A DNA stretch of 64,000 bases from an uncultured Clostridia bacterium (GTDB lineage: Bacteria; Bacillota; Clostridia; Christensenellales; UBA1242). This document shows, piece after piece, positions 7,374 to 50,851 of the stretch. Below the pieces are notes generated by a model. It was not told where the DNA came from. It did no database searches and saw only the letters and a list, made by a program, of their open reading frames with translations. Where the stretch lies: contig CALWFB010000001.1 of NCBI GenBank assembly GCA_944377485.1, positions 12,138 to 76,137 on the forward strand, in the 5' to 3' direction. The translations under genes and the position numbers were made by a program. Every line of letters begins with the position of its first letter. The stretch's first letter is position 1.

Positions 7374-10300
7374 TTGCAAATCGAAGCATTACTAAAATCC
7401 AATAAAAGACTAGCCCAAGACCTAGAAGACTACGAAATGCAAATCACGAAATTAGAGCATCAACGTGAATTATACGAAATGCAGGTTCCAGTGCACTATT
7501 TGTACAATGAGGATAATATAATCTATGGATTTGGCAAAACTGCGAATGAAGACATCTTCCGCTTAATTCTAATCACCGATTCATATGAAAATTCAATATT
7601 TATCAATTACTCCTCATCCGAAAGCAACCAAATCACCAGCATCATTGATTCAGCGGAAAAGAGCATTACTTTCAACTACGACAGCCAGTTGAGGCTATCG
7701 AGCATAATTGATGCACGAGATAGAGAAATTTCATTTGCATATGTTAACAATCTTTTAACGACAATCACCTACCCTGATAAAACTATCAGTCGCTATTTCT
7801 ACGACTCAGACAACAAGATGATAGCGATAATAGACCAATCAAATATGGGTGCATATTTAGAATATTCGGACAATCAAATCAAGGTTCAAGCGCTCTCCGC
7901 ACTAAATTCTATCAAGCATAACCAGCCAGATTATCAAAAGGTTCTAGACTCGACCACTCTGACCTCTTATTTAATCGACAATTCATATCTCACAATCCAA
8001 TTTTACGACTGCAAAACCACCCACGTCAAAAATGCAAAGGGCAAGACCGTAGTCTATGTATTCAACAATCAAGGACAGGCAATCAATATATACGAAGATA
8101 GTTCTTCCCTGGATTCAGACAACACTAATGTACTGTCCAGACAATACTCTTACACAGACAAATTGCTGTCCGAATCAATCACCACCCTTCCTTATGCCAG
8201 AAATTATTTAGACGGTTCATGCTTCGACACAAGTATAATCTCACAGATTCCAGCACTCTACACTGGCAATATAATCGTCAGTGAAAATGCTTATTCAATC
8301 CCAAGTTTCATCAAAACAGCCTCCTGCGTTCACACTTTCACAGGCGACTTTCAGTCCGCTTCAATCTCAATGAGTGAACTAAATATTAGCGAACTAAACA
8401 CACAACTGACCTCAAAAAAGATTGAAAATATGGTACTCACCGGTTGGGCAAAGGCAAATTCCGCTTTCGTAAAGAATCCAAATGTGGCTGACAAATTTAA
8501 TGACGAAGAAATATCCTACCCAAGTTATATAGACAATAGGAAATTCGAACTTCGCATTTCAATCAAATATTCGGACGAAACCGACCCTCAAATTCTTTCA
8601 AAACAATTTGATTGGATGAACACCGAGTGGCAATATTGCTCTCTTCCTATCAAATTGAAACCAAAACAAATCGAATCCATATCTTGCTATTTCGATTATT
8701 CCAACAATACTAATACAGCCAACGTTCAATTCACTGATTTAGAGTTGCGTGAAGGTAGTTGTGAATCAAGGCATTATGACGATGAAAGCAAACTCATCAA
8801 ATCTGAATCTTCCACTTCTTTCACTCTCTACACCTACGACTCTGATGGCAATCTAATGAGCGAAACCACCCGTCTGATTCATGACGAAGACGATAAAGAA
8901 TTTATCACAACCTACGAATACAACAAAAACAACAAATTATTAAAAACCATCGACTATAATGGTATCATCACAGAAAATGTATATAATGACAAAGGTGTAG
9001 TGACGAAAACTTTGACCTACCATATCAATGAACCTACTCGCAAATTCTATTCCGAAACCCCAACTGACGAAAAAGGCAACACCACAGCTAGCGTAAACGA
9101 ATTTGGCGAACCTCTTGCTAATTATGAGTACATTGATGGCACAGGCATAATCTCTACCGAAACCGACCCTCACAACAACAGAACCTCGTACGCCTACGAC
9201 TCTAATGACACTCTAATCGGCTTAACCAGCACTGTCAATGGCGAAGAAAACACCAATATCTATGGCTACACCCTCACCTTTTTGACCTCGCTTAAACACA
9301 ACGACTTTGAATACAACTATGAGTATGACAACCTAGGCAAACTTAGCAAAATCTCCATTGCAGGAAACGAGTATCTATCTAAAACGTATGCTTATCAAGA
9401 TAATGACTCCATAGAACATGATAGCGAAACCACCACGTACAAGAATGGTGCAACGTTCAAGCAAATTCTCAATGATGACGGCAATGCCACTACTCTTGAA
9501 TATAACGGCAACACTATTCTAGAAAATATCTACAATTCGCTTGGCAATATCATTCAATCTACTGATATGTCAAATGATGAAAATAATATTCACAAGTATT
9601 ATTATGACAAATTTGGCAATCTGTATAGAGAAACCAACACTCAGCACAATACTAATGTTGAATTCGAAAACACTCTCAATCTTGACACAAATCAGCTAGA
9701 TGAGTCCACTATCAAATTAGGTAATGACACTTATCGCTACAATTATTCTTATACCAACAAACTTGACTCCACCATTTCTAATTTGTCTTTAACTAAATTT
9801 ACTAACTCAGATTCTTCCACAGCGCAAACCACCCCAATCTTTGAATCAAATATCAGTTATGATAGACTTGGTAGAATCTCAGAAATCGTTCAAGGTATAA
9901 ATCGTAAACAATATCACTATCTATCCAGTGGAGACCATACGTCAAATCTCATTTCTAGTGTTTGGTATGGTGACAATCTTAAACTTAGTGAAAACTATAA
10001 ATATCGCTATGACGAAAAAGGTAATATCCTAGAAATCCGAGAAAACGGCACTCTAATTGCTCGTTATAAGTATGATAGTTTATCTCGTCTAATCAGAGAA
10101 GATAACAAATCATTCAACAAAACCACAACCTACGACTATGACGCCGGTGGAAATATAATATGTAAAAATATATACAACTTCACACTAGTTGAAAATCTAG
10201 ATTTTGAGACCATTCAGTCTACAATTCCTTATTTATACAAATCTACTGGCTGGCGTGACCAATTAGTTTCATATAATGGCGAAACCTTTACTTATGACGA

Positions 10301-11558
10301 AATTGGTAATCCAACTAAATATAGAGATAAAAACTTATCATGGTCACACGCTAGACAGCTGGATAGTTTCGGAGATATTGCAAGTTTCAAATATAATGCT
10401 AATGGTATTAGAATCAGCAAGACCGTAAATGGTATTACAACTAAATATTATTTAAACGGAAATAAAATCATATCTCAAACTGATGCTACCAATACTCTAT
10501 TCTTCTATTACGGAACAGATGGTATTACAGGCTTCAACCATAATGGAACTGATTATTTATATAAGAAAAATATTCAAGGTGATATAATTGGAATCTATAA
10601 TCCAGAGAACAAGTTAATATGTAAATATATCTATGACGCATGGGGAAATCACGTTTGTCGAATTTTGTCGAATAATGGAGAATACGTTGACATAGTAGAT
10701 ACAAGTAATTATAATATTAATAGCAATTATATAACTATTGCTAACTTAAATCCTTTCCGCTATCGTAGTTATTACTATGATACAGAGACAGGACTATATT
10801 ATCTTAATAGTAGATACTATGACCCACAAACTGGAAGATTCATTAATGCAGATGCTATTTCCATAATTGACATCTCTCAAATAACTATTAATGGATTAAA
10901 TCTTTATTCTTATTGCTTAAATAACCCAGTTAACCAAATTGACGAAAATGGTTATATCGTTGGCTGGCTATTGGCTATAATTGTTGGCTCGATTATCGGA
11001 GCAACGGTGAATACTGGTTTTGAAGTGGCTAATCAAGTAAAAAATCATGGCTGGGATTTAGAAAACTGGAATTGGACTCAAATAGGATTGTCTTTTTTAG
11101 GCGGTGCAGTTTCAGGAGCCATTTCAGCAATTCCTGTTCCTGGATTTCAGACTTTCGGTATTTGGGGTAAAGTTTTTCATTATGGATTAACTTTTGTTAT
11201 TGGAGGTATCGGAGCTGTTGCAGGAGGCTTAATAGATGGTTCTGTCTATAATATCAAAAGTGCTTTTACAAATTTTGCTATTGGTGGAACTTTTAGTTTA
11301 TTTGCTGATTTATTTACAAATGGATTAAATAATATTGTTCAAAAATATTCAAACAATGTTTTAACAAATCCTTTATATGCTAATATGACTTTGGAAGACT
11401 TAATTGGTAGTGGTTTGAAAGAATATCCAAAACATTTAGCAAAATTAATGAATAAATTATCGCGTGCAATATTATATGCAAACAGAGGATTAACCAAATC
11501 TATATTTTATATGATTGGAATAAATTCAATTTTAGAAATCATTTCTGGTTTGCTATAA
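7374..11558 (+). CDS. RHS/YD-repeat toxin protein, apparently 5'-truncated (frame open from 7062 with no upstream start codon)
   Basis: Dozens of YD repeats (YDxxGN, YxYD). Core end YDAWGN...NPFRYRSYYYDTETGLYYLNSRYYDPQTGRFINAD...LYSYCLNNPVNQIDENGY, then a 200-aa variable C-terminus. Only a TTG start at 7374, with no SD. Confidence 0.85.
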   Translation: MQIEALLKSNKRLAQDLEDYEMQITKLEHQRELYEMQVPVHYLYNEDNIIYGFGKTANEDIFRLILITDSYENSIFINYSSSESNQITSIIDSAEKSITFNYDSQLRLSSIIDARDREISFAYVNNLLTTITYPDKTISRYFYDSDNKMIAIIDQSNMGAYLEYSDNQIKVQALSALNSIKHNQPDYQKVLDSTTLTSYLIDNSYLTIQFYDCKTTHVKNAKGKTVVYVFNNQGQAINIYEDSSSLDSDNTNVLSRQYSYTDKLLSESITTLPYARNYLDGSCFDTSIISQIPALYTGNIIVSENAYSIPSFIKTASCVHTFTGDFQSASISMSELNISELNTQLTSKKIENMVLTGWAKANSAFVKNPNVADKFNDEEISYPSYIDNRKFELRISIKYSDETDPQILSKQFDWMNTEWQYCSLPIKLKPKQIESISCYFDYSNNTNTANVQFTDLELREGSCESRHYDDESKLIKSESSTSFTLYTYDSDGNLMSETTRLIHDEDDKEFITTYEYNKNNKLLKTIDYNGIITENVYNDKGVVTKTLTYHINEPTRKFYSETPTDEKGNTTASVNEFGEPLANYEYIDGTGIISTETDPHNNRTSYAYDSNDTLIGLTSTVNGEENTNIYGYTLTFLTSLKHNDFEYNYEYDNLGKLSKISIAGNEYLSKTYAYQDNDSIEHDSETTTYKNGATFKQILNDDGNATTLEYNGNTILENIYNSLGNIIQSTDMSNDENNIHKYYYDKFGNLYRETNTQHNTNVEFENTLNLDTNQLDESTIKLGNDTYRYNYSYTNKLDSTISNLSLTKFTNSDSSTAQTTPIFESNISYDRLGRISEIVQGINRKQYHYLSSGDHTSNLISSVWYGDNLKLSENYKYRYDEKGNILEIRENGTLIARYKYDSLSRLIREDNKSFNKTTTYDYDAGGNIICKNIYNFTLVENLDFETIQSTIPYLYKSTGWRDQLVSYNGETFTYDEIGNPTKYRDKNLSWSHARQLDSFGDIASFKYNANGIRISKTVNGITTKYYLNGNKIISQTDATNTLFFYYGTDGITGFNHNGTDYLYKKNIQGDIIGIYNPENKLICKYIYDAWGNHVCRILSNNGEYVDIVDTSNYNINSNYITIANLNPFRYRSYYYDTETGLYYLNSRYYDPQTGRFINADAISIIDISQITINGLNLYSYCLNNPVNQIDENGYIVGWLLAIIVGSIIGATVNTGFEVANQVKNHGWDLENWNWTQIGLSFLGGAVSGAISAIPVPGFQTFGIWGKVFHYGLTFVIGGIGAVAGGLIDGSVYNIKSAFTNFAIGGTFSLFADLFTNGLNNIVQKYSNNVLTNPLYANMTLEDLIGSGLKEYPKHLAKLMNKLSRAILYANRGLTKSIFYMIGINSILEIISGLL

Positions 11559-11578
11559 ATTTTAATTTAGAGGTATAA

Positions 11579-12094
11579 ATGAAAAAACTTTTAAATACTA
11601 ACAAATATGATTGGATATTCCCTTTACTACTCTTTATAATTTTTCTTATCTCTTTAATATGTCTACTTATATTATATATACCTAATACAAATAGTAATTT
11701 ATCATTAAAAACACTTTTAATAGTTATATTATCAATCCTAATGCTTACATCTTTAATTTGTTTTTTATTTACTTTCCAATTTATAATTATAAACAAGAAT
11801 GGAATTATATTTAGGTGTTTAATATGCAAATATTCTTTTATAAAATGGAATGAAATTAAAAGCCTTAAATTAATTAACTTAAATACTAGTTCATCAATAG
11901 TTGGAATGAAATACTATCACATTTTTATAGAAATACAAACAATAAATGATAAACAAAATATGTTTAATAAAATATTATATAATAAAAAAAATGCAAATAT
12001 CCTTTTAGAATTTATTAATAAATATAATAAAAAAATCGATATAACTTGTTTAACAGAGAACTCAAATTTTAATTCAACTATTAAATGGTTTTAA
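11579..12094 (+). CDS. candidate cognate immunity protein (membrane-anchored)
   Basis: Starts 20 nt after the RHS stop. It has 2-3 N-terminal TM helices. The position is typical for rhs immunity genes. No family recognised. Confidence 0.45.
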   Translation: MKKLLNTNKYDWIFPLLLFIIFLISLICLLILYIPNTNSNLSLKTLLIVILSILMLTSLICFLFTFQFIIINKNGIIFRCLICKYSFIKWNEIKSLKLINLNTSSSIVGMKYYHIFIEIQTINDKQNMFNKILYNKKNANILLEFINKYNKKIDITCLTENSNFNSTIKWF

Positions 12095-12186
12095 ATTAAT
12101 TGTTTTTAAATAATTAAATTAAATAATAAAAAAGTATGATATATCATACTTTTTTATTTTTGTACAAATACATATATTTACCTTAA

Positions 12187-12645
12187 TATAATCTAGATTT
12201 TGAGACCATTCAGTCTACAATTCCATATTTATACAAATCTACTGGCTGGCGTGACCAATTATTGTCCTACAATGGCGAAACCTTTGTTTACGATTCTATT
12301 GGCAACCCAACTACTTATAGAAACAAAACTCTTTCTTGGTCTCACGCTAGACAGCTGGATAGCTTTGATACTCATACATACAAATACAATGCAAATGGCA
12401 TACGTATTCAGAAAGATAATATCCAATTTTTCTTAAATGGCAATAAGATTATTTCACAAACCGATGGAACTGACACTCTATTCTTCTATTATGCCTCAGA
12501 CGGTGTCACTGGCTTCAATCACAATGGAACCGACTATTTCTACAAGAAAAATATTCAAGGTGATATCATAGGTATATATAATAATGAAAATAAACTTGTT
12601 TGTAAATATATTTATGATGCCTGGGGAAATAAAAAAGGACAGTAA
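12187..12645 (+). pseudogene. orphan rhs core fragment (duplicate of 10195..10650) lacking a toxin domain
   Basis: NLDFETIQSTIPYLYKSTGWRDQL.SYNGETF...YDAWGN parallels the main gene. The first ~75 nt are near-identical and the rest is diverged. It ends YDAWGNKKGQ-stop. No ATG start. Confidence 0.75.
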
Positions 12646-16547: not shown

Positions 16548-16557
16548 TCATAAAAAA

Positions 16558-16573
16558 TGTTCCACGTGGAACA
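16558..16573. promoter_or_regulatory. parS site 1 (also forms a terminator-like hairpin after parA)
   Basis: Perfect palindrome TGTTCCACGTGGAACA flanked by an A-run and a T-run. Confidence 0.85.
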
Positions 16574-16790
16574 TTTTTTTGATTTTATTAATTATAAAAA
16601 CAATTTTTTTATACAACTAAGAATTTTAATAGACGAAATATAAATATGTGATTATTTTATTTATATTTCGTATAATAAAAGGTGTTTATTAATTTAAATT
16701 TATATATCATAATATTAATCTTCTTTTTACTGTATTATATTTATTTAATTTTGTAATAATTAATATTCTACAAATTAAAGTCACAGTTAA

Positions 16791-16806
16791 TGTTCCACGT
16801 GGAACA
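16791..16806. promoter_or_regulatory. parS site 2
   Basis: Perfect palindrome TGTTCCACGTGGAACA. Confidence 0.85.
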
Positions 16807-16902
16807 ATTTTTACATTAATAAATAAAATTTTGGATAAGTTTATAAAATTTACAATTATTATTTGACACGCAATTAAATATGTATTATAATTAATATATA
16901 AA

Positions 16903-16918
16903 TGTTCCACGTGGAACA
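16903..16918. promoter_or_regulatory. parS site 3
   Basis: Perfect palindrome TGTTCCACGTGGAACA immediately upstream of the parB SD. Confidence 0.85.
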
Positions 16919-17913: not shown

Positions 17914-18897
17914 TCAAAATATTTTTGTAGATATCTTTTTGTTTTGATGAACTTGTTCGAGAAATTCTTTCAAGACTTCTTCTTCGATTTCCTTTATTGA
18001 TTTATTACTAAGATAAGCGGCAGCCCCTATATGTCCTCCACCTCCAAATTTTTTTGCAATCATAGCGACATCGTATCCTCGTTTGGCTCTCATACTAACA
18101 TAATATTGATTATCCTTTGGTTGAACAAAACATACTAAGCAATTACCAGAAATCGTCGCCAATCTATTGATTATGCCAGTATAATCATCAAACTTTGCTT
18201 TATACAATCGGGCCTGTTCTCGTGTGATTTGTGTTAAAATTATTTTACCATCTTCTAACGTTATTATATTTTGAATTGCCAAAGCTAGCAGATTCATGTT
18301 TCTAATTGTATTACTATTAAAAAAGTTATTATATATAGCGCCACTATCAATATAATTAAAGCAGGCGCTTGCTATTTTAAATGTATTTTTAGTAATAGCG
18401 CCTACTGAAAAATTGTTTGTATCCGTTATTATTCCCGCATAAATTTTACCATAAATCTTTGATGAAAATTTATAGTTATAAGCTTTCAATATCTTATAAA
18501 CAATTTCACACGTAGAACTAACAATTTCTACTATATTAAAATCTCCATCTCTTAAATTTGTATTATGATGGTCTATTACGAAAGTTTGTTTTGCCTTATC
18601 AAAAAGTATTTTATATTTTCCTACTCTATCAAGATTTGGGCTATCCATCATAATAGCTGTATGATACTTTGTAAAACTTTTATTAATTTTAACATTTTCA
18701 ATTATTGGCAAATAATTATTTGCTAATCCATCACTTTCAGCAAAAATATCAACCTTTTTAATTCCAAAATGTTTTATTATAAATTCTCTCATTACTATCA
18801 TGCTACATAAAGCATCGGCATCTGGCTCAATGTGCCCTATTAAACAAACCGAAGTAGCTTTTGATAAATTATCTAATATTTTTTTATATCTATTCAT
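17914..18897 (-). CDS. nrnA: DHH/DHHA1 phosphoesterase (NrnA-like oligoribonuclease / pAp phosphatase)
   Basis: Motifs HIEPDADAL, VIDHHNTN, GGGGHIGAAA. TGaTATAAT lies 6 nt upstream of the ATG. Confidence 0.8.
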   Translation of the reverse strand: MNRYKKILDNLSKATSVCLIGHIEPDADALCSMIVMREFIIKHFGIKKVDIFAESDGLANNYLPIIENVKINKSFTKYHTAIMMDSPNLDRVGKYKILFDKAKQTFVIDHHNTNLRDGDFNIVEIVSSTCEIVYKILKAYNYKFSSKIYGKIYAGIITDTNNFSVGAITKNTFKIASACFNYIDSGAIYNNFFNSNTIRNMNLLALAIQNIITLEDGKIILTQITREQARLYKAKFDDYTGIINRLATISGNCLVCFVQPKDNQYYVSMRAKRGYDVAMIAKKFGGGGHIGAAAYLSNKSIKEIEEEVLKEFLEQVHQNKKISTKIF

Positions 18898-18968
18898 ATA
18901 TTTATTATATCATATTATTTGAAATTCAGTTTCGTTTTTTTACTTCTATTTCTAAAATAGTGTAAAAG

Positions 18969-19044
18969 TTATCCACATTATGTGGATAACTCTGTGGATA
19001 ACTTGTGGAAAAGGTGTGGAAAAGTCGAAATATATTGTGGATAA
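18969..19044. promoter_or_regulatory. DnaA-box cluster (6 boxes in 76 bp), candidate oriC or DnaA-titration site
   Basis: Perfect TTATCCACA/TGTGGATAA at 18969, 18981, 18993 and 19036. One-mismatch TGTGGAAAA at 19004 and 19015. Very AT-rich flank to 19295. Confidence 0.8.
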
Positions 19045-19295
19045 GACATAATTGTATATATTAATACATTATATCTATCATTTATAAATTCTATTCTATT
19101 ATTTAGATATTCTTTTACAAAATCTTATAAAACTTCTATAATCTATTTAAAACTATAATTTGGTTTAGCCTTAGAAATTTTTAATTTAATTTGATTTATA
19201 TTTTATAAAAGCATTATTTTAATTTGAAGACAACTGAAATATTACAAATTCTATATCGTTAGTTATAACTTGTAATTTTAAAAATATATTATTGT

Positions 19296-20009
19296 ATGAA
19301 GTTTAATATGAAAATCAAAAATTTTTTTCTTGCCAATAAATGTATTATAATAATGCTATGTATAATGCTGATACTTTCATCTTGTTTCTCTGGAATTGTA
19401 GCATATAGCGTTTCAAATTATAATGGTATTACAATTGTAATTGATGCAGGTCATGGAGGCAGAGACGGAGGAAGTATCGGAATAAATGGAACGATTGAAA
19501 AAGAAATAAATTTAAAATATTCGCTAGCATTAAAAGAAAAACTTGTAAGTGCGGGTTATAGAGTAGAATTAACTCGAAAAACTGATGATGCTCTATATTC
19601 TGAAACGGCAAAAAATAAAAAAATGAGCGATATGCGCGCAAGATTCAATATTATTCAAAAAACAAATCCAAATTTAGTAATAAGCATACACATGAACAGT
19701 TTTAATTCTTCAAGTGCACGTGGTGCATTGACATATTATCGCAATGGCGATGAAGCTAGCAAAAAATGTGCAGACTTGATTCAGTCTAGTTTAAACACTT
19801 ATTGTGCTGCTCCAACTCGTCAAGGAAAAGTTGGTGATTATTATATTTTAAATTGCAGTTATTACACCTCAATATTAATTGAATGTGGATTCATCTCAAA
19901 TCCAGAGGAAGAGAGATTATTAAATACTGATGAATATCGTGAAAAATTCATTGATGCTATTTATAATGGAATACTATTGTATTTTGGCAATACTAATAAC
20001 AATATTTAG
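19296..20009 (+). CDS. N-acetylmuramoyl-L-alanine amidase (Amidase_3, CwlD-like)
   Basis: IDAGHGGRDGG, SIHMNSF, ECGFISN motifs. N-terminal TM anchor. Confidence 0.85.
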   Translation: MKFNMKIKNFFLANKCIIIMLCIMLILSSCFSGIVAYSVSNYNGITIVIDAGHGGRDGGSIGINGTIEKEINLKYSLALKEKLVSAGYRVELTRKTDDALYSETAKNKKMSDMRARFNIIQKTNPNLVISIHMNSFNSSSARGALTYYRNGDEASKKCADLIQSSLNTYCAAPTRQGKVGDYYILNCSYYTSILIECGFISNPEEERLLNTDEYREKFIDAIYNGILLYFGNTNNNI

Positions 20010-22441: not shown

Positions 22442-24277
22442 ATGAAAATAATAACTAGACGAGAATTAATTGATAAATGGTTCAAATTTTATACGAGCAA
22501 AGCTCACGTAATTATACCTAGTGCTAGCATTGTGCCAGAAAACGACCCTACTGTGTTATTCACAACAGCAGGTATGCATCCGCTAGTACCATATTTGCTT
22601 GGTCAACCACACCCAAAAGGTAAAAGATTGTGCGACTTGCAAAAATGTATTCGAACCGGTGATATAGACGAAGTTGGAGATGATAGTCATCTAACTTTTT
22701 TTGAAATGCTTGGCAATTGGAGCCTTGGAGATTATTTCAAGGAACAAATGATTCCTTGGAGTTATGAATTCTTAACCAGTCTAGAATATTTAGGACTGGA
22801 CAAAGACAAGCTTGCTGTCACAGTATTTGCAGGAAATGACATTGCTCCACGAGATAATCTTTCAGCAGCATTATGGGAAAAGCAAGGTATAAAAAAAGAA
22901 AACATTTATTACTTAAAGGATAATTGGTGGATATTGGGAAGCGGAATTGGTCCATGCGGTCCAGATACTGAGATGTTTATTGATACGGGTAAACCAAAGT
23001 GTTCTCCTGAGTGTAATCCTAGTTGCGATTGTGGAAAATTCTTAGAAATTTGGAACGATGTATTTATGGAATATAAAGTCAATCCAGATAAATCAGTCGA
23101 AAAATTAGCTCATCCAAATGTTGACACGGGTATGGGACTAGAACGTACTCTTTGCAAATTAAATGGATACAAATCTGTATATGAAACAGAATTATTCGCT
23201 CCTATCATTCAATATTTAGAAAAAATTAGTGGTAAATCATATCATGATGAAGAATACACTTCTTCATTTAGGATTATCTCTGACCATATGCGTGCTGCTA
23301 CTTTTATTATTGGAGATGAACAAGGTGTTTCTCCTAGCAATTTAGGTCAAGGATATGTTCTACGCCGTCTTATTCGTAGAGCAATTCGACATATGAAAAA
23401 ATTAAGTATAGAAAAAGGTCACCTTGGCGAAATATCTAAACTTTATATAGAATATTTTAAACAAGATTATCCTGAACTCAATACCAATGCTCAAAAGATT
23501 ATTGATGAACTAAATAAAGAAGAAGACAAATTCTTAAAAACTCTTGAATTGGGCAACAAAGAATTTGAAAAAGTAATCAATGGAATTGAACGAAAAAATC
23601 AATTCATGTCAAAAGACCCAAATTATAAACCTGAAAATACTATCAGTGGTAAAAGTGCATTTAGGTTATATGATACCTTTGGTTTCCCAATTGAATTGAC
23701 ACAAGAAATGGCTAATGAACGTGGATATATGGTTGACATAGATGGATTTAACGAAGCTTTCCGTCAGCATCAAGAATTGGCTCGCACCACCAATGCGGGA
23801 GTGTTCAAAGGTGGACTTGCTGACGACAGTGTTTGGACAACTCGACTACACACAGCATGCCACTTATTACTTGCTGGACTAAGGAAAATGTTTGGCAATC
23901 AAATAGAACAAAAAGGTAGCAATATCACTAGTGAAAGGTTGCGTTTTGACTTTAACTTTGATAGAAAATTGACCGATGATGAAGTAAAAAGTCTTGAAGA
24001 ATTTGTAAACTCTGCAATAAAGCAATCTATTCCTGTTGAGCGTTTAGAAATGAAGTTTGAAGAAGCAAAACAAAAAGGTGCATATGGTGTATTAAAGGCA
24101 CAAGATAACGATATAATTTCCATATATAAAATAGGTGACGTAGATTTCCAAATTTGTGGTGGTCCGCATGCAAAAAACACTAGCGAACTGGTTGATTTTA
24201 AAATTGTTAAACAAGAAGCCGTGTCTGCTGGTGTAAGACGTATAAAGGCAGTGATTAATACACAAAATGCTAACTAA
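22442..24277 (+). CDS. alaS: alanine--tRNA ligase, short form lacking the C-Ala domain
   Basis: FTTAGMHP, FFEMLGNWSLGDYFK, GPCGPDTEMF. Editing-domain HTACHLL...CGGPH. Only 611 aa. Confidence 0.9.
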   Translation: MKIITRRELIDKWFKFYTSKAHVIIPSASIVPENDPTVLFTTAGMHPLVPYLLGQPHPKGKRLCDLQKCIRTGDIDEVGDDSHLTFFEMLGNWSLGDYFKEQMIPWSYEFLTSLEYLGLDKDKLAVTVFAGNDIAPRDNLSAALWEKQGIKKENIYYLKDNWWILGSGIGPCGPDTEMFIDTGKPKCSPECNPSCDCGKFLEIWNDVFMEYKVNPDKSVEKLAHPNVDTGMGLERTLCKLNGYKSVYETELFAPIIQYLEKISGKSYHDEEYTSSFRIISDHMRAATFIIGDEQGVSPSNLGQGYVLRRLIRRAIRHMKKLSIEKGHLGEISKLYIEYFKQDYPELNTNAQKIIDELNKEEDKFLKTLELGNKEFEKVINGIERKNQFMSKDPNYKPENTISGKSAFRLYDTFGFPIELTQEMANERGYMVDIDGFNEAFRQHQELARTTNAGVFKGGLADDSVWTTRLHTACHLLLAGLRKMFGNQIEQKGSNITSERLRFDFNFDRKLTDDEVKSLEEFVNSAIKQSIPVERLEMKFEEAKQKGAYGVLKAQDNDIISIYKIGDVDFQICGGPHAKNTSELVDFKIVKQEAVSAGVRRIKAVINTQNAN

Positions 24278-25323: not shown

Positions 25324-26958
25324 ATGGACAATAATATTACACCATCTAACTTTATAGAACAAGCAATTGTAGAAGATATTAAAGAAAAAGGTCTTAAAAA
25401 AATCATAACACGTTTTCCACCAGAACCTAATGGATTTACACATATTGGACATGCCAAAGCAATATGTATAGATTTTTTAACCGCTGAAAAATTCAAAGGT
25501 TATACAAATCTTAGAATGGACGACACCAACCCAAACAAGGAAAGTGATGTCTACGTAAAAGCATTAATGGAAGATATCAAATGGCTTGGTTTTAAATGGA
25601 AAAATTTAACTTATGCTTCTGATTACTACGAGTTCCTTTATAATTGTGCAATTGATTTGATTGAACAAGGAAAGGCTTTTGTATGTGATTTGAGTGCAGA
25701 TGAAGTCAGTTCAATGCGTGGAACTCTGACTGAACCCGGGAAAGAAAGTCCTTATAGAAACCGTTCAATAGAAGAAAATTTAAAGTTATTCAAAGAAATG
25801 AGAGCAGGTAAATATGCTGACGGAGAAAAAACTTTGCGTGCCAAAATTGACATGTCTCACCCTAATATAAACATGCGAGACCCTGTTATTTATCGTATTC
25901 TTCATGTGAAACATTTTAGACAAGGGGACAAATGGTGTATTTATCCGATGTATGATTTTGCACACCCATTAAGTGACGCATACGAACAGGTGACTCATTC
26001 TCTTTGTAGTCTTGAATTTGAAGACCATAGACCATTATATAATTGGTTTGTAGATAATTGCAGAATACTACCAGGTGTGAAACCTAGACAAATAGAATTT
26101 GCTAGACTTAACATTGACGGTACAGTAATGAGCAAACGATATATGCACGAATTGGTTGAAAAAGGATATGTCGATGGTTGGGACGACCCAAGACTCCCTA
26201 CTCTATCCGGATTTAGACGCAAAGGATATACTCCAACCGCCATACGAGAATTTTGCACACGTATTGGAGTTGCCAAATCAAATAGTGTAGTTCAACCACA
26301 TATCTTAGAAGCCTGTATTCGTGAAGAGTTGAATAAATCTGCTCTACGTGTGGTTGCTGTTCTTGACCCTATAAAAGTCAATATCACAAACTTCCCAGCC
26401 AACAAGACAGAAAAAGTTTTAATCTCCAACAATCCTACCATAGAAAACAGCAAAAAACATTCAATTCTTTTCAGCAACGAACTATATATAGAACGTGAAG
26501 ACTTCATGATAGAGCCTACCAGCAAATTCTTCCGACTTACTCCGAATGGATATGTTAGATTGATGGGGGCTTATGTCATTAAATGTGACGAAGTTGTTAA
26601 AGATAAAAATGGCAATATTGACCATTTGAATTGCTCGATAATATTTGATGCAAAAGAACAAAACATAAAACCAAAAGGTACAATTCATTGGCTAAGTAGA
26701 AAAGAAGCCGTAAAAATCACCACTCGCAAATTCCACAATCTTTTGAAAGAAGGTGAAGTGTATGAAAGCGGAATGGTGGATAAAATAATCAATCCTAATT
26801 CTATGGAAAAACATATTTCATACATTGAACCATTTGCATTAAAACAAAAAGGAAACATGCAGTTTATCCGAAATGGATATTATATTGAAGATAGTCGTCT
26901 TAGCAAAAAAGATAATAAAGTATTTTTAGAAACAGTAAGTTTAAAAGATAGTAAATAA
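25324..26958 (+). CDS. glnS: glutamine--tRNA ligase
   Basis: TRFPPEPNGFTHIGHAKA (HIGH) and VMSKR (KMSKS). Length 544 aa with a GlnRS-type C-terminal beta-barrel region. Confidence 0.9.
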   Translation: MDNNITPSNFIEQAIVEDIKEKGLKKIITRFPPEPNGFTHIGHAKAICIDFLTAEKFKGYTNLRMDDTNPNKESDVYVKALMEDIKWLGFKWKNLTYASDYYEFLYNCAIDLIEQGKAFVCDLSADEVSSMRGTLTEPGKESPYRNRSIEENLKLFKEMRAGKYADGEKTLRAKIDMSHPNINMRDPVIYRILHVKHFRQGDKWCIYPMYDFAHPLSDAYEQVTHSLCSLEFEDHRPLYNWFVDNCRILPGVKPRQIEFARLNIDGTVMSKRYMHELVEKGYVDGWDDPRLPTLSGFRRKGYTPTAIREFCTRIGVAKSNSVVQPHILEACIREELNKSALRVVAVLDPIKVNITNFPANKTEKVLISNNPTIENSKKHSILFSNELYIEREDFMIEPTSKFFRLTPNGYVRLMGAYVIKCDEVVKDKNGNIDHLNCSIIFDAKEQNIKPKGTIHWLSRKEAVKITTRKFHNLLKEGEVYESGMVDKIINPNSMEKHISYIEPFALKQKGNMQFIRNGYYIEDSRLSKKDNKVFLETVSLKDSK

Positions 26959-34848: not shown

Positions 34849-36582
34849 TTATTGACGCAATCTAATATGAAGTTCTCTCAATTCTTTTTCGCCAACTTCA
34901 ATTGGTCCACCCATCAATAAATCTTGTGCTTTACTATTCATTGGGAAAGGAACAACATCTCTTATGTTTGTGATTCCTAACATTAACATCAATAATCTTT
35001 CAAAGCCAGGTGCTACACCTGCATGAGGCGGCGCTCCATATTGGAATGCTGTATATAATGCTCCAAAACGAGATTTGATTTCTTCCTCTCCGTATCCAAC
35101 AATTTCAAAGACTTTTAGCATTATATCTTTATCTGTATTACGAACTGCTCCTGACGCAATCTCATATCCATTGGCTACCAAATCATATTGATATGCTGTA
35201 ATTTTTAATGGGTCTAATGCATTTAATTCCTCTAAACTTGCTTTTGGCATATTGAATGGATTGTGGCAAAATTCTATTTTGCCTTCATCGTTCAATTCAA
35301 ACATGGGGAAATCTGTTATCCAGCAAAATTCTATTCGAGATTTATCCACCAAGCCCAATTTTTCACCCGCTTCATCTCTTAGCATACCTGCAAGTTTATA
35401 ACACTTCTTGCTGCTAGCATCTGCAATTACAAATATATCATCACCAATTTTTGCGCCAGTTTTTTTGATTAATTCTTGGCATTCCTTTTCTGTAATAAAT
35501 TTCACTATCGGTCCTTTAAGTGAACCATCTTCTTGAACTCTAACCCAAGCCAATCCTTCTGCGCCTTCGCTTAACATTAGGTCTTGCAATCTATCAAAGA
35601 AACTCCTAGGTTGATTACTAGCACTTACAGCAAATCCTTCGACCGTTCTATCTTTAAATGCTTTAAATGTTGTATCTTTGAATACGTCTTCTAATCCTAC
35701 CATAACTATCGGATTTCTTAAATCTGGTTTATCCGTTCCATATTTAATCATTGCCTCTCTATATGAAAGCTTTGGGAAAACTCCTTTATTAAACGGAAAT
35801 TTGCTATATTTAGAAAACAAATCATTGATAAGAGTTTCAACCACTGAATGAACGTCCTCTTGTGTTGCAAAGCTCATTTCCATATCTATTTGATAAAAAT
35901 CTCCTGCAAGCCTATCCGCACGAGGGTCTTCATCTCTAAAACATGGAGCAATTTGAAAATATTTATCAACTCCACCACACATTAAAAGCTGTTTAAATTG
36001 TTGAGGAGCTTGTGGTAGTGCATAAAATTTTCCTTTATGCACTCGACTTGGTACTAAATAATCTCTCGCACCTTCTGGACTAGGGACTGTTAAAATAGGT
36101 GTATTAACTTCTGTAAATCCAAGACTTCGCATTAAGCTCCTGGTCTCAAAAGCAACATCATCTCGCAATTTTAACATTTGTTGCATTTTATCATTACGCA
36201 AATCAAGATATCTGTGTCTTAACCTAATTTCTTCGCTTGTCTTCATACTATCTTCCACATCGAATGGTAGCATATGTTTTGAACTAGACAAAACTCTCAT
36301 CTCATCAATTTTTACTTCAACTCTCCCTGATTTTATATTAGGGTTAATTGTATCCTCATCACGCAAAACAACTTTACCTTTTACTGTTATTACGCTTTCC
36401 CTAGCAAGAGATGTCAATAAACTATCATCATTTGTCTTTAATTGAACGACTCCGCTCTTATCTCGAATATCTATAAAAACAATTCCTCCATGGTCTCGAA
36501 CTGTTTTTACCCAGCCAGCGAGTTCTATTTCTTTTCCTATAAAACTTTCATCTACATCTCCCAGCATCACTGTCCTATACAT
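34849..36582 (-). CDS. aspS: aspartate--tRNA ligase (bacterial type; possibly non-discriminating)
   Basis: FYQIDMEMSF, class II motif 3 GAPPHAGVAPGFERL. 577 aa. Last gene of the gatCAB-aspS operon. Confidence 0.9.
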   Translation of the reverse strand: MYRTVMLGDVDESFIGKEIELAGWVKTVRDHGGIVFIDIRDKSGVVQLKTNDDSLLTSLARESVITVKGKVVLRDEDTINPNIKSGRVEVKIDEMRVLSSSKHMLPFDVEDSMKTSEEIRLRHRYLDLRNDKMQQMLKLRDDVAFETRSLMRSLGFTEVNTPILTVPSPEGARDYLVPSRVHKGKFYALPQAPQQFKQLLMCGGVDKYFQIAPCFRDEDPRADRLAGDFYQIDMEMSFATQEDVHSVVETLINDLFSKYSKFPFNKGVFPKLSYREAMIKYGTDKPDLRNPIVMVGLEDVFKDTTFKAFKDRTVEGFAVSASNQPRSFFDRLQDLMLSEGAEGLAWVRVQEDGSLKGPIVKFITEKECQELIKKTGAKIGDDIFVIADASSKKCYKLAGMLRDEAGEKLGLVDKSRIEFCWITDFPMFELNDEGKIEFCHNPFNMPKASLEELNALDPLKITAYQYDLVANGYEIASGAVRNTDKDIMLKVFEIVGYGEEEIKSRFGALYTAFQYGAPPHAGVAPGFERLLMLMLGITNIRDVVPFPMNSKAQDLLMGGPIEVGEKELRELHIRLRQ

Positions 36583-36597
36583 AATTATCTCCTTTAA

Positions 36598-38010
36598 TTA
36601 GTTAATTTTATCCTTTAATTTTTCCATAACTTCTTGTGCATTTGCTTTCCCTCGGGTTTCCTTCATTACCTGTCCAACAAGGAAATTTAATATTTTAGGG
36701 TCTTGCTCACTTTTATATTGTTCAACGACCTGTGCCTTTTCTAGTAAAACTTTATCCAAAACTTCAAACACTAAATCGCTAGACATATCTGCCATTATTC
36801 CCTGTCTTTTAGCTTCTTGTTCTGCGTTTAAATTTGTTCCCCAAATATAAGATAACAAGTCTTTTGCTGCATTTCTACGAATTTTCTTTTCGTCAACAGC
36901 TCTAATTATCCAAACTAAATTTTCTTTGCCTATTTGAATTGTTCCGCCACCCTTTATTCTAGCAAGAATTTCAGTAGTAAACCAATTTGCAACAGATTTA
37001 GGTTGGAAATACATTTTCAAACAATCTCTATACATATCAGAAACTTCTTTATCTGCTAATATAACATCAGTATCGTATTCATTTAATCCATATTCTTCAA
37101 GATATTTTTTCTTCATCTCATCAGGAAGCATTGGCATGCTATCTTTTATTTGTTTTATTTCATCGTCACTAATGTTTACTGCCAACAAATCTGGGTCGGG
37201 AAAATATCTATAATCTTCGCTATTTTCTTTTGTCCTAAGAGTAAAACTTTCTCCCTTATCATTATCCCATTTTCTAGTCTCTTGAACAATTTCTCCACCA
37301 TCATCAAGTATTTCTTTCTGTCTCTCAATTTCGTAATTTATTGCTCTATGGATTGCCTTAAATCCCATTATATTTTTCATTTCCACTTTTGTCCCAAATT
37401 CTTTACTTCCTTTGGGTTTTAAAGAAATGTTTACATCTGCTCTCATTTGACCTTTTTCTATTTCGCAATCAGCCACTCCCGCATAAATATAAATTTGTCT
37501 CAATTTTGTCAAAAATTCAATCGCTTCATCGGCTGTCTCCATATGAGGTTCTTTCAATGCATCTGTCACCAATTCAATTAGTGGTACACCACATCTATTG
37601 TAATCAATCATTGAAACATCGTCTTGATGAATCAACTTTCCTGCATCTTCTTCCAAATGAATTCTATTGATAGGAATATCTTTGTCAAACACCCGTAGAT
37701 GACCATTGATACAGATAGGTTTTTCTAATTGGCTGATTTGATAAGCTTTTGATAAATCGGGATAAAAATAATTTTTTCTCTCAAAAATCGCTGTACGGTT
37801 AATTTCAAATCCAAGTGCAAGTCCTGCTCGAATAGTTTGTTCCACTGCTTTACGATTCAACACAGGCAAAGCACCTGGTAAACCCATACATACAGGACAA
37901 CAATTACTATTAGGAGAACTGCCGTATTCGTTTTTGCATGAACAAAAACATTTGCTTTCAGTCTTCAATTCCGCATGGACTTCTAGTCCTATTACCACAT
38001 CATATTGCAT
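36598..38010 (-). CDS. gatB: Asp/Glu-tRNA amidotransferase subunit B
   Basis: MQYDVVIGLEVHAEL N-terminus and YqeY-like tail. 470 aa. Confidence 0.9.
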   Translation of the reverse strand: MQYDVVIGLEVHAELKTESKCFCSCKNEYGSSPNSNCCPVCMGLPGALPVLNRKAVEQTIRAGLALGFEINRTAIFERKNYFYPDLSKAYQISQLEKPICINGHLRVFDKDIPINRIHLEEDAGKLIHQDDVSMIDYNRCGVPLIELVTDALKEPHMETADEAIEFLTKLRQIYIYAGVADCEIEKGQMRADVNISLKPKGSKEFGTKVEMKNIMGFKAIHRAINYEIERQKEILDDGGEIVQETRKWDNDKGESFTLRTKENSEDYRYFPDPDLLAVNISDDEIKQIKDSMPMLPDEMKKKYLEEYGLNEYDTDVILADKEVSDMYRDCLKMYFQPKSVANWFTTEILARIKGGGTIQIGKENLVWIIRAVDEKKIRRNAAKDLLSYIWGTNLNAEQEAKRQGIMADMSSDLVFEVLDKVLLEKAQVVEQYKSEQDPKILNFLVGQVMKETRGKANAQEVMEKLKDKIN

Positions 38011-38011
38011 A

Positions 38012-39445
38012 TTATTCTCCTATTTTTGTTTCTATAAATTTTGCGAATTTATAAATCGTTGCTTCATCAAATTTTTTTGCCATAAGCTGTATACCTAACG
38101 GAAGCCCATTATCTCCTTTCCCAAAAGGAATGGATAGTGATGGTAGCCCCGCAATATTGGCTGTCACAGTGAAAATATCCTCTTTGTATGTGTCAACTGG
38201 ATTTTTTGATTTACTGCCAATTTTAAATGCTTCGCCGATTGTCGTTGGCATAATTATAATGTCACAACCTTTGAATGCGTCTTCAAACTCTTTAATCAAT
38301 TCATGTTGAACTGCTTTTGCCTTTTTGTAATATGCATCATAATATCCAGAAGATAAAACATAGTTTCCAAGCATTATTCTTCGTTTTACTTCACGACCAA
38401 AACCTTCGCTTCTACTTTTTTTATATATCTCCTGTAAATTCCTAGCATCATCACTGCGTGTAGTATACTTTACTCCATCAAATCTTGCCAAGTTGCTGGT
38501 TGCCTCTGCTGGTGCAATAATATAATAGGTTGCAAGTCCCAAACTTATATCTTTAATTGATATATCTACAACTTTTATCCCATTTAATTTTAATAAGGAT
38601 AAAAATTTTGAAATATTTTTTTCACACGGCATTCCCTTAATCATTTCTAAAATCTCATGTGGAACACCTATTGTCAACTTTGATATATCTTCATCTAGAA
38701 TTTTTGAATACTCCTCAACTTTTTCATCTGCACTTGTGCTATCACACTCATCTTTTCCTGCAATCACTTCTAGCATCAAAGCATTGTCTAATACATTTTT
38801 TGAAAAGATTCCTACCTGGTCTAGTGAACTAGCAAAAGCCACAATCCCATATCTAGATATTCTTCCATAGCTAGGTTTTAAACCATAAATTCCGCAATAA
38901 CTTGCAGGCTGACGAACGCTTCCTCCTGTCTCTGTACCAAGAGAAATTGGACACATATTCAGAGCAACAGCACAAGCACTTCCCCCTGATGAACCTCCTG
39001 GAACTCTGTCAAAATCTAGTGGATTGTGAGTGACACCAAAAGCCGAATTTTCAGTAGAACTTCCCATAGCAAATTCATCCATATTTGCTCTACCAATTAT
39101 TATCGCACCTGCGTTTAAAACTTTCTTTATGACTGTTGAATCATATTGAGCAATGTAGTTTTCTAAGAATTTTGAACTGCAACTACATTTCTTTCCTTTA
39201 TATAGTATATTGTCCTTAATGATTATTGGCACTCCCACTAGTTTACCACGAAACCCAGATGAAATTTTTTTGTCCATCTCTTTTGCTTTTTCTATTGCAT
39301 CATCAAAGACTTCTAATACCGCATTGTATTTTTCACATTTTTTGATTTGTTCTATAAAAGCCTTACACACCTGTTCGGCGCTCAACTCTTTTGTTAAAAT
39401 TTTATCTCTTATTTCTATTGCTGATAAATCAATAATTTCACTCAT
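38012..39445 (-). CDS. gatA: Asp/Glu-tRNA amidotransferase subunit A
   Basis: Amidase signature GGSSGGSACAVA. 477 aa. Confidence 0.9.
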   Translation of the reverse strand: MSEIIDLSAIEIRDKILTKELSAEQVCKAFIEQIKKCEKYNAVLEVFDDAIEKAKEMDKKISSGFRGKLVGVPIIIKDNILYKGKKCSCSSKFLENYIAQYDSTVIKKVLNAGAIIIGRANMDEFAMGSSTENSAFGVTHNPLDFDRVPGGSSGGSACAVALNMCPISLGTETGGSVRQPASYCGIYGLKPSYGRISRYGIVAFASSLDQVGIFSKNVLDNALMLEVIAGKDECDSTSADEKVEEYSKILDEDISKLTIGVPHEILEMIKGMPCEKNISKFLSLLKLNGIKVVDISIKDISLGLATYYIIAPAEATSNLARFDGVKYTTRSDDARNLQEIYKKSRSEGFGREVKRRIMLGNYVLSSGYYDAYYKKAKAVQHELIKEFEDAFKGCDIIIMPTTIGEAFKIGSKSKNPVDTYKEDIFTVTANIAGLPSLSIPFGKGDNGLPLGIQLMAKKFDEATIYKFAKFIETKIGE

Positions 39446-39447
39446 AT

Positions 39448-39723
39448 CTACTCCATTATCCTAGGAACAACTATACAATCTTTTTTTACGACAGGGGTGT
39501 TTTCAAGTAATATATCAACAGGCATACTGTCCTTTGCTTTATCTTCTCTTAGATTTAACATATCAATGCTATTAATAAAACTGCTTCCGCTAATTTCTGC
39601 ATTTTTCACTATGTCTGCCAACTCCAATAGACTACTAAATTCATTAGAAAACTCTTCCAATTCCTCTGTACTGAATTCCAATTTAGACAATTCTGCAAGA
39701 TGTTCAATTTCTTTAATATCCAT
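39448..39723 (-). CDS. gatC: Asp/Glu-tRNA amidotransferase subunit C
   Basis: 91 aa. MDIKEIEHLAELSKLEFSTEELE typical GatC. AAGGAG SD. Confidence 0.9.
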   Translation of the reverse strand: MDIKEIEHLAELSKLEFSTEELEEFSNEFSSLLELADIVKNAEISGSSFINSIDMLNLREDKAKDSMPVDILLENTPVVKKDCIVVPRIME

Positions 39724-47624: not shown

Positions 47625-48980
47625 TTAATATTTTAACAATTGAGATTTAATATCATTTACAAGTGTTCTAATATGTGGATTTATTTTTACTTGATTACTA
47701 ATTTTATCTCTTGCATGCATAATAGTCGTATGGTCTCTTCCTCCAAATATTGCACCAATTGCAGTAAGTGGAATGCTAAGCATATCGTTTATTAAATATA
47801 TGCACAACTGTCTTGGTTCAACAATTTCTTTATTTTTTTTCTTTCCAATCAAATCTTCTTTCGATACTTTGAAGAAATCACATACGGTATTTAAAATTTT
47901 CTCTGCATCGAGATTTGTTTTTTCTGTCTCTCCATAATCTTTAAGTGCTTCGTGAGCATCTTCCATAGAAGCATGTGATTTTCCAAGCAAACTTGAATAA
48001 AATACCACTTTTGATAATATTCCTTCCATCTCACGAATATTAGTTCCTGTCTTTTGTGCTATAAAATCTACTACATCTTCGTCAACAAGATATCCCTCTT
48101 GACTACATTTTTTCTTAATAATTGCTACCTTAGTTTCATAATCAGGCTCTTGAATATCTTGAATAAGCCCACTACTGAATCTACTACGTAATCTCTCTTC
48201 TAATGAACTCATCTCTTTTGGTGAACGGTCAGAAGCAATTATAATCTGTTTATTGTTTTGATATAAATCATTGAATGTATGGAAGAATTCTTCTTGAATT
48301 CCCATTTTGTTGCTAATGAATTGAATATCATCAATCATTAACACATCTACACTACGATATTTATCTCTAAAATCGAGATTTGATTTATCTTTTCCACTAC
48401 GGATAGAATCTACATAATCATTTGTGAATTTTTCACATGTCACATAAAGTACGTTTAAATCAGGTCTATGTTTGTTTAAATAATTACCAACTGCATGCAA
48501 TAAGTGTGTTTTACCAAGTCCAACACCTCCATAAATGAATAATGGATTAAATTTTTCACTAGGGTGTTCCGCTACACTCTGCATAGCTGCACATACTACT
48601 TGATTTGATTTTCCTACTACAAAGTTTTCAAATGTATATTTTTGATTAAATTTGGACTTAAAGTTATTTGAATCTTTTTCACTCATCATTCGCTCTAATT
48701 CTTCATCTTGTTTTCTAATAGATTCTTCATATTCCTGATTGTCTGTTATTCGAACGAATGTATATGGTGTAAACTCTTGTCTAACACATTTTGTTATTTT
48801 TTCATATATAGCAGGTTGATTAACTTGATTTTTCGCTGTAATACTAGGTGCTTTTAATATTAATTCATCATTTGCATATTGAATTGGCGTCAAGGTATTT
48901 ATCCATAAATCAAAGGTGACAGCGGTCACTTCGTTTTCTAACTTATTCAATACCTTTTTCCATTGGTCAAGTAAAAACAT
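47625..48980 (-). CDS. dnaA: chromosomal replication initiator protein DnaA
   Basis: Walker A GGVGLGKTHLLHA, MIDDIQF. C-terminal DNA-binding domain FGGRDHTTIMHA. Confidence 0.95.
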   Translation of the reverse strand: MFLLDQWKKVLNKLENEVTAVTFDLWINTLTPIQYANDELILKAPSITAKNQVNQPAIYEKITKCVRQEFTPYTFVRITDNQEYEESIRKQDEELERMMSEKDSNNFKSKFNQKYTFENFVVGKSNQVVCAAMQSVAEHPSEKFNPLFIYGGVGLGKTHLLHAVGNYLNKHRPDLNVLYVTCEKFTNDYVDSIRSGKDKSNLDFRDKYRSVDVLMIDDIQFISNKMGIQEEFFHTFNDLYQNNKQIIIASDRSPKEMSSLEERLRSRFSSGLIQDIQEPDYETKVAIIKKKCSQEGYLVDEDVVDFIAQKTGTNIREMEGILSKVVFYSSLLGKSHASMEDAHEALKDYGETEKTNLDAEKILNTVCDFFKVSKEDLIGKKKNKEIVEPRQLCIYLINDMLSIPLTAIGAIFGGRDHTTIMHARDKISNQVKINPHIRTLVNDIKSQLLKY

Positions 48981-49219
48981 ATACCACTCCTCAATTTTTG
49001 TTGCTATTATTATATAATAAAAATAATATTAAGTCAATTAGCAAATCAAAATTAAATTAAAGGTTTTGTTTGTTGTTTTTTATGATTGGCACTGTATTTT
49101 AAAATCAGTTTTCATGACATAATTATTGTTTAGTCAATCAATCTCTTTGAAAAATGAAAAATACGAAATATTCTAATAAATTTTTTATTGGTACTGAAAT
49201 ATTTGTTCTCTATGATGAG

Positions 49220-49365
49220 TTATACACATTGAAATTTGGGTTATCAACATAAATATACACACATTTAGTCACATTTATTGTGGATAAAAATAGTATGAAT
49301 TTTGTCGAATTATGACAGAATCACCACTATATATTGAATTAAATTAAGTTGTCCACTTTTCCACA
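49220..49365. promoter_or_regulatory. DnaA boxes in the dnaA-dnaN divergent intergenic region
   Basis: TTATACACA 49220, TTATCAACA 49241, perfect TGTGGATAA 49279, TTTTCCACA 49357. Confidence 0.7.
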
Positions 49366-49522
49366 TTCACTAATAAAAAAATCACTATCAAAAAACAAAA
49401 AAAATTAATAAAAAAACTACACGTGCACGCACGCATATAATGCGCATAAAATACTATTTTATAGTATTTTTCTTTGATTTAATTAATAGAAAAAATTTTT
49501 CGACAAAAGTGTAAAAATTTAT

Positions 49523-49551
49523 TTGACATATCTAGGCTCGTTTGCTAATAT
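49523..49551 (+). promoter_or_regulatory. promoter of dnaN
   Basis: TTGACA-17 nt-TAATAT. About 90-nt 5' UTR to ATG 49645. Confidence 0.6.
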
Positions 49552-49644
49552 AGTCATGTATCATTAGATGGAATGCGAGCAATTTCACGTGGTACAGATG
49601 ATATTGAGGGGGAAGTATTATCGTGGTATGTTAAGGAGTCTATT

Positions 49645-50742: not shown

Positions 50743-50851
50743 TAAATTAATTAAATTTAATAATTTAATAAAAAATTTATTATAATAAATATAATATAAA
50801 TATAAAATAAATTAATAAAAAAATATTTTGTAATACGAAAATATCTATTAT

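Follow-up and report, generated by a model that had tools for sequence, protein, structure and literature searches.

A conserved array of six DnaA boxes beside nrnA in an uncultured Clostridia bacterium, probably an origin-proximal DnaA-box cluster outside oriC

The stretch of 64,000 nucleotides analysed here (the window) comes from an uncultured Clostridia bacterium, and at about 19 kb it contains an intergenic region between a divergent nrnA-like and cwlD-like gene pair, in which six DnaA boxes lie within 76 bp (18969-19044). Four of the boxes match TTATCCACA perfectly, and two carry one mismatch (TTTTCCACA). When the array is read on the minus strand, five boxes follow each other head to tail, with start-to-start spacings of 21, 11, 11 and 12 nt, and a sixth, inverted box follows after a gap of 3 nt. 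No other box cluster within the window is as dense or matches as well. When the window was simulated 300 times with a first-order Markov model, the count per 100-bp stretch never exceeded three boxes (one mismatch at most) versus the six observed, and a chance origin of the cluster was thereby ruled out. The coordinates of the features are collected in Table 1. The six boxes with their match quality, their place between two divergent genes, the very AT-rich DNA that follows, the triple parS close by and the distance of ~30 kb from dnaA had been reported in the initial annotation, and all of these observations were confirmed: the ~250 bp on the cwlD side of the array (19045-19295) have a GC content of 13-16%, the three parS sites are identical and lie 2 kb away, and the distance to dnaA was measured as ~29-30 kb (28.6 kb to the 3' end of dnaA).

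Table 1. Features of the array region and of the dnaA-dnaN region. Positions refer to the window.
Feature	Position	Strand	Remark
parS, three identical sites (TGTTCCACGTGGAACA)	16558-16573, 16791-16806, 16903-16918		parA-parB spacer, ~2 kb from the array
nrnA-like DHH/DHHA1 phosphoesterase gene	17914-18897	-	array neighbour in 5 of 7 species
Putative extended -10 (TGATATAAT) of the nrnA-like gene	18904-18912	-	read from the sequence
Most conserved array core	18964-19009	-	TCCACAAGTTATCCACAnAGTTnTCCACA(n2-3)TGTGGATAACTTTT; alignment A3
Array box 1	18969-18977	+	perfect
Array box 2	18981-18989	-	perfect
Array box 3	18993-19001	-	perfect
Array box 4	19004-19012	-	TTTTCCACA
Array box 5	19015-19023	-	TTTTCCACA
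Array box 6	19036-19044	-	perfect
Promoter-like site TTTACA-17-TATAAT, facing the cwlD-like gene	19114-19142	+	11 of 12 matches; consensus match only
cwlD-like N-acetylmuramoyl-L-alanine amidase gene	19296-20009	+	array neighbour in 5 of 7 species
dnaA	47625-48980	-	divergent from dnaN
dnaA-dnaN divergent spacer, most likely oriC	48981-49572		boxes at 49220-49365; contains the skew change point
dnaN	49573-50742	+	divergent from dnaA
Spacer downstream of dnaN, 326 bp, 4-18% GC	50743-51068		three perfect DnaA boxes at 50852-50941

Downstream of the array, at a distance of ~56 nt, comes the extended -10 of the nrnA-like gene, 6 nt ahead of the ATG; it is kept in three relatives (L009 and L010, alignment A1; L017, alignment A3). 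A Shine-Dalgarno sequence is absent (18895-18912, minus strand), and the nrnA-like mRNA may be leaderless, because the extended -10 precedes the ATG by only 6 nt. On a promoter scan of the region, the number of consensus sites equalled the shuffle expectation. An Rfam scan matched only tRNAs and gave no RNA element at the array locus. The parA-parB spacer with its three 16-bp parS palindromes is unusually long (370 bp; 16548-16918), and it is long in relatives too.

For the comparison with relatives, two GTDB MAGs labelled 'uncultured Clostridia' (L009 and L010, with NrnA 81% and 77% identical) were considered together with four contigs obtained by a protein search with NrnA (L011, L013, L015 and L017, with homologues of 63, 60, 58 and 53% identity). 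DnaA is 82-92% identical across the clade, and one DnaA homologue (90% identity) is named 'Candidatus Onthoplasma faecipullorum' (Christensenellales in the NCBI taxonomy). The initial annotation had looked to relatives for the presence or absence of the cluster, and the array was found in all six of them, that is, in seven species including that of the window. The architecture of five boxes plus one is common to these species, in spite of an NrnA identity of only 53-81%, with two exceptions: the L013 array is shorter by exactly one 11-nt box unit, the helical phase being preserved, and the L015 array is devoid of the distal box. The array core (46 nt) has a mean pairwise identity of 94% and a minimum of 87%, and the flanks, 35-37% identical, are essentially unalignable (alignment A3). 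The conservation takes in the non-box spacer bases and a CTTTT tail, and the inverted pair TTATCCACA-nnn-TGTGGATAA at the array end, with a gap of 2-3 nt, is invariant in all seven species. To judge from these alignments, the array is under strong selection. Scans of JGI metagenomes gave no match with the NrnA alignment, and with the array pattern they matched the same species only.

The genomic context of the array is more variable than its sequence. In the window, L009, L011 and L017, it lies between cwlD and nrnA. In L010 it is located upstream of nrnA, with a convergent 616-aa gene as its other neighbour and a flank on that side that is not AT-rich; in L015 it abuts the start of cwlD, and a beta-lactamase-family gene lies between the array and nrnA; in L013 it is found upstream of tmk, 5 kb from nrnA. 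The distance from the array to the 3' end of dnaA is 4.3 kb in L013 (dnaA locus L019), 9.6 kb in L017 and 28.6 kb in the window, and the array is origin-proximal wherever this is visible, namely in these three genomes. Its orientation relative to fork travel also varies, the window and L017 differing from L013 and L015. From these gene orders and alignments, the array appears to move independently of its flanking genes. It can also be mentioned that in L010 (1-17446) the parAB-nrnA block has a skew sign opposite to that of the window and of L009, and this block is therefore reversed relative to the origin of that genome, suggesting that inversions around the origin have occurred repeatedly in the clade.

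The proximity to gene starts is compatible with a reading in which the array is only a DnaA operator that couples the transcription of nrnA and/or cwlD to the state of replication and plays no part in the control of initiation. The array ends ~56 nt upstream of the conserved extended -10 of nrnA, nrnA is kept on one side in five of the seven genomes and cwlD on the other in five of the seven, and no genome lacks a gene start that faces the array; moreover, the DnaA-box clusters (DBCs) of Bacillus subtilis regulate their neighbours sda, ywlC and yydA (PMC3245932). However, no single gene is tied to the array in all genomes, as the array upstream of tmk in L013 illustrates, and in L015 the end with the inverted box points to the 3' end of a gene, while in L010 the other side is occupied by a convergent gene. 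In addition, the array occupies positions of about -60 to -150 with respect to the -10, without overlap, and six boxes of invariant architecture far exceed the need of a typical operator. We consider this reading unlikely.

The location of the replication origin was analysed by means of strand skew. Because raw GC skew is confounded by the coding strand, we used the skew of G versus C at third codon positions of each gene (GC3), expressed on the plus strand. From 1.5 to 49 kb, up to the end of dnaA, the GC3 skew is negative in 40 of 42 genes on either coding strand, for example in the plus-strand genes alaS (-0.13), glnS (-0.27), rpsF (-0.31) and mnmG (-0.31) and in the minus-strand genes gatB (-0.26) and aspS (-0.23). 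From dnaN (49.5 kb) to 64 kb it is positive in all 17 genes, again on either coding strand, including the minus-strand genes at 55649-56911 (+0.33) and 58851-59543 (+0.35). The skew switch at ~49.4 kb runs from minus to plus and is of the origin type, and the sign of the GC3 skew is unchanged across the array. The cumulative G-C minimum was 49,454 whether all sites, intergenic sites or third positions together with intergenic sites were counted, whereas third positions alone placed it at 48,213, inside dnaA. In a two-segment likelihood model, the maximum-likelihood change point was 49,476 (2-lnL interval 49,420-49,571), which is inside the dnaA-dnaN spacer. This model was better than a model of no change by 110 lnL units, and a change point confined to 15.6-19.3 kb was, at best, 84 lnL units worse. 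In 10-kb extensions past both window ends, taken from same-species contigs, the pooled skew was -0.165 on the left and +0.17 to +0.18 on the right, its sign being independent of the coding strand in both. The skew analysis spans ~84 kb of one ~276-kb scaffold and records long-term history, not present-day firing. As regards the relatives, no minus-to-plus GC3 switch was found at the array in L009, L010, L011, L013, L015 or L017, and a weak skew switch is present at dnaN-dnaA in L019.

The chromosome origin is thus most likely the dnaA-dnaN region, at ~49.4 kb. The initial annotation had proposed a displaced oriC at 15.6-19.3 kb, a proposal refuted by the change point at 49,476; it had also named a skew minimum at dnaA-dnaN as counting against such an oriC, and the minimum at 49,454 is located there. 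The proposal was based on the co-orientation of genes with replication and on a switch of the coding strand at ~15.6 kb. Such a switch is real, there being 19 plus-strand versus 10 minus-strand genes at 15.7-49.2 kb, but the genes on its left are not almost all on the minus strand, as had been stated: left of 15.7 kb, five genes covering 6.8 kb (mostly an RHS cassette) are on the plus strand and eight covering 4.6 kb are on the minus strand. The switch of the coding strand has no matching nucleotide skew. The plus-strand genes at 15.8-47.5 kb have the GC3 composition of the lagging strand, and those of 15.7-49.2 kb, which carry this composition, have therefore long been head-on to replication. 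The possibility of an origin at 15.6-19 kb hidden by a recent inversion was also considered and was judged unlikely, since the gtrB-parA-parB-nrnA junction is old, its gene order being common to species with NrnA only 77-81% identical. The plus-strand genes of the segment would be lagging-strand under either scenario, with or without the inversion.

With the origin at 49.4 kb, ~19 plus-strand housekeeping genes (15786-47469) are head-on to the fork, and they include parAB, tmk, alaS, glnS, lepB, dacA, rpsF-ssb-rpsR, prfB, tsaD, mnmE, mnmG, rsmG and recF. The head-on placement of highly expressed and essential genes is unexpected in Bacillota, and the co-orientation rule fails in this stretch. 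In the same part of the window, the AlaS gene (22442-24277) encodes a short form of 611 aa, whose best match is PRK01584, and a GlnRS gene (25324-26958) is present alongside gatCAB-aspS (34849-39723). The RHS cassette, which accounts for most of the plus-strand coding left of 15.6 kb, contains a gene for an RHS-repeat protein of 1394 aa (7374-12645 region; GC 35%, GC3 skew -0.51) followed by small ORFs; this region varies among strains (L023, L024) and has the appearance of a polymorphic-toxin cassette.

In Bacillota, dnaA and dnaN are usually in tandem. Here they diverge over a spacer of 500-650 bp, in the window (47625-50742) and likewise in L019 (8400-11347) and L020 (8254-11350), and because this arrangement is common to relatives we regard it as a trait of the clade. 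The rpmH-rnpA-yidD-yidC-jag genes are on the plus strand 12 kb to the right of the dnaA region and do not adjoin dnaA. The argument for a displaced origin had made no use of the minus-strand dnaA, divergent from dnaN, or of the box clusters at 49220-49365 and 50852-50941. Approximately 250 bp of the dnaA-dnaN spacer are conserved with L019 and L020 (alignment A4). Within the spacer, tandem boxes (TTGTCCACT/TTTTCCACA) at 49349-49365 are followed by TTCA, by CTA ATA and by a ~45-nt A-tract that extends to 49419. This element (49349-49419), which is kept in L019 and L020, is positioned directly to the left of the change-point interval and has a partial basal-unwinding-system (BUS) layout; it is the candidate unwinding site of oriC, although its canonical DnaA-trios number only two. 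The spacer also contains two perfect Spo0A boxes (TGTCGAA), at 49303-49309 (plus strand) and 49499-49505 (minus strand), of which the box at 49303 is kept in relatives, and Spo0A is encoded by the species (L021, 17271-18023). These sites suggest a possible sporulation-linked control of initiation or of dnaA/dnaN transcription; across the window as a whole, Spo0A boxes are not significantly enriched (11 observed versus 6.2 expected). As for the AT-rich spacer downstream of dnaN, two of its three boxes form an inverted pair ending in ...TGTGGATAACTTTT, as in the 19-kb array, and equivalent boxes downstream of dnaN are absent from L019 and L020. The spacer may represent a second origin component or one more DBC.

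The array and the spacers were also compared with respect to DNA unwinding. The module sought consisted of a box, a spacer of at most 16 nt, DnaA-trios and an AT-rich DNA unwinding element (DUE). The polarity rule for the trios derives in part from the R1/DUE arrangement of Escherichia coli. It derives in part, too, from the oriC2 sequence of Clostridioides difficile (PMC7561715). The DnaA-trio/BUS scan gave no canonical box-spacer-trio run adjoining the array; since all three box clusters proved to be without a canonical module, the scan does not discriminate between them. By eye, a partial module (two trios and an A-tract) that is conserved in relatives was recognized in the dnaA-dnaN spacer. 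A trio-like run near the array (TAGAAATAGAAGTAA) occupies the wrong strand with respect to the boxes, and L009 and L010 lack it. The AT-rich flank of the array is not conserved, and other DNA or genes are found in its place in L010, L013 and L015. Among the features of an oriC, the array has the box cluster, which is necessary and not origin-specific, and shows neither a skew switch nor a conserved unwinding module; among those of a DBC, it has near-consensus boxes outside oriC and an origin-proximal location, with the high early dosage that this implies.

A further reading assigns the array to a split origin, as a remote auxiliary part whose bound DnaA is looped to the unwinding site in the dnaA-dnaN spacer; the array would then be a relic of the box cluster found upstream of dnaA (oriC1/incAB) in typical Firmicutes. 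The inversion of dnaA relative to dnaN in this clade and the missing rpmH-dnaA box cluster speak in its favor, as does the conservation of the array, which is stricter than a sink would need, and a precedent exists in the distal box of B. subtilis incC, which acts through a loop (PMC6669920). Nevertheless, the separation of 4-30 kb is variable and contrasts with ~1.4 kb in known bipartite origins, and the orientation of the array is not conserved, and we regard a split origin as quite improbable. Finally, it is very improbable that the array itself serves, at a site displaced from dnaA, as the replication origin or as an additional active one: the density and match quality of its boxes, the adjoining ~250 bp of low GC content, the nearby parS sites and coding-strand switch, and the origin-like head-to-tail spacing of one helical turn are outweighed by a skew change point at 49.4 kb with the near-array point 84 lnL units worse, by six relatives with no origin-type switch at the array, by an AT-rich flank that is replaced in three genomes, by the lack of a box-spacer-trio module in the correct polarity, by a variable orientation and distance to dnaA, and by a dnaA-dnaN spacer that is itself conserved and box-rich.

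By analogy with B. subtilis, the array is probably an origin-proximal DBC situated outside oriC. A DnaA-titrating site of this kind had been named in the initial annotation as the alternative to a displaced origin, and it fits all of the evidence, as the array is outside the skew switch, origin-proximal and conserved. The array sits on the dnaA-side replichore, ~30 kb from the origin and 2 kb from the parS sites, where ParB is loaded. It is taken to be neither an origin nor a simple operator because it stays near the origin and parS, is free of any one promoter or orientation and has no conserved unwinding element. We infer that DnaA binds to the array, with titration or another negative control of initiation and a modulation of promoters as its consequences. 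The five high-affinity boxes, arranged head to tail at one helical turn and capped by the inverted box, could seed a short DnaA oligomer that assembles cooperatively on double-stranded DNA. Since the array would be copied within seconds of initiation, its copy number would double early, and the doubled array could draw DnaA from oriC, or alter the state of DnaA, and in this way damp re-initiation. As a secondary effect that would depend on the genome, bound DnaA could modulate the adjoining promoter, here that of nrnA and possibly that of cwlD.

Simple titration may be an incomplete description of the array, because its sequence is invariant across genera, spacer bases included, which goes beyond the literature on the DBCs of B. 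subtilis. A tentative extension is that the array is a dedicated cis-acting DnaA-control locus of the functional class of datA and DARS, more than a passive sink, for which the exact geometry is required. It is likewise conceivable, though doubtful, that the array persists as a mobile unit close to the origin and parS throughout an uncultured Christensenellales-like clade with an unusual divergent dnaA-dnaN origin. An activity that depends on the geometry, be it hydrolysis, exchange or looping to oriC, is conceivable with the same reserve. If the dedicated control locus were real, it would be the first sequence-conserved locus of its type defined in Clostridia. Regardless of that extension, the analysis corrects the origin call, given that heuristics based on box density or on the coding strand would misplace oriC by 30 kb in this lineage, and it exposes an unusual origin neighborhood, with divergent dnaA and dnaN and ~19 head-on housekeeping genes including rpsF-ssb-rpsR. 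For uncultured gut Clostridia, the array provides a clean case of an origin-proximal DnaA-box cluster established by comparison, its fixed architecture suggests that geometry counts and not box number alone, and it could guide experiments on non-origin DnaA sites in bacteria without the Hda/SeqA of E. coli.

In the literature library searched, nothing specific came up on DnaA boxes beside nrnA or on origins in Christensenellales. The array was compared with better known systems. With the bipartite oriC of Firmicutes (incAB/incC of B. subtilis and oriC1/oriC2 of C. difficile; PMC7561715, PMC6669920) it shares dense boxes at helical-turn spacing and, in the window genome, adjoining AT-rich DNA. 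Unlike these origins, it is off the skew switch and away from dnaA and dnaN, its flanks are unconserved, and a conserved DUE or DnaA-trio module is lacking. With DARS1 and DARS2 of E. coli it has in common closely spaced boxes that include an oppositely oriented pair. This pair resembles the head-to-head boxes of DARS, a resemblance that speaks against the DBC reading. To our knowledge, the DnaA of Bacillota exchanges nucleotide readily, as worked out in B. subtilis, and we know of no need for a reactivation of the DARS type. The core of DARS consists of three boxes, at which ADP-DnaA releases its nucleotide, and DnaA is reactivated there, not sequestered (PMC5742627).

The datA locus of E. 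coli, which has head-to-tail boxes near oriC (PMC5742627), may be regarded as a functional analogue of the array. Both are origin-proximal, non-origin clusters with about five boxes in head-to-tail order (in datA, the essential ones), and early duplication is thought to matter for datA. The datA locus, at which DnaA-ATP is hydrolysed, needs an IHF site between its boxes and spans ~260 bp to 1 kb (PMC5742627), and the array belongs to another phylum and another regulatory network, with no Hda/RIDA.

The closest comparison is with B. subtilis, in which six DBCs outside oriC, mostly origin-proximal, are co-distributed with parS (PMC3245932, Okumura et al. 2012). These DBCs repress initiation synergistically with Soj/Spo0J: deletion of all of them leads to early initiation and is synergistic with the loss of Spo0J, and an ectopic DBC copy rescues the phenotype in a dosage-dependent manner (PMC3245932). 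Some of them also regulate adjoining promoters, and clusters of this kind are described as usual close to the oriC of Firmicutes, the gene downstream of them differing between species (PMC3245932). The array differs from the DBCs of Bacillus, whose positions vary by species, in being compact (76 bp), with a fixed architecture of five boxes plus one and a sequence conserved over several genera; its strictly retained inverted sixth box and its invariant spacers exceed what is described for Bacillus. Like the DBCs of B. subtilis, the array consists of high-quality boxes outside oriC, is intergenic and promoter-adjoining, lies close to the origin together with parS, and is found in a Bacillota genome without control of the SeqA/Hda type.
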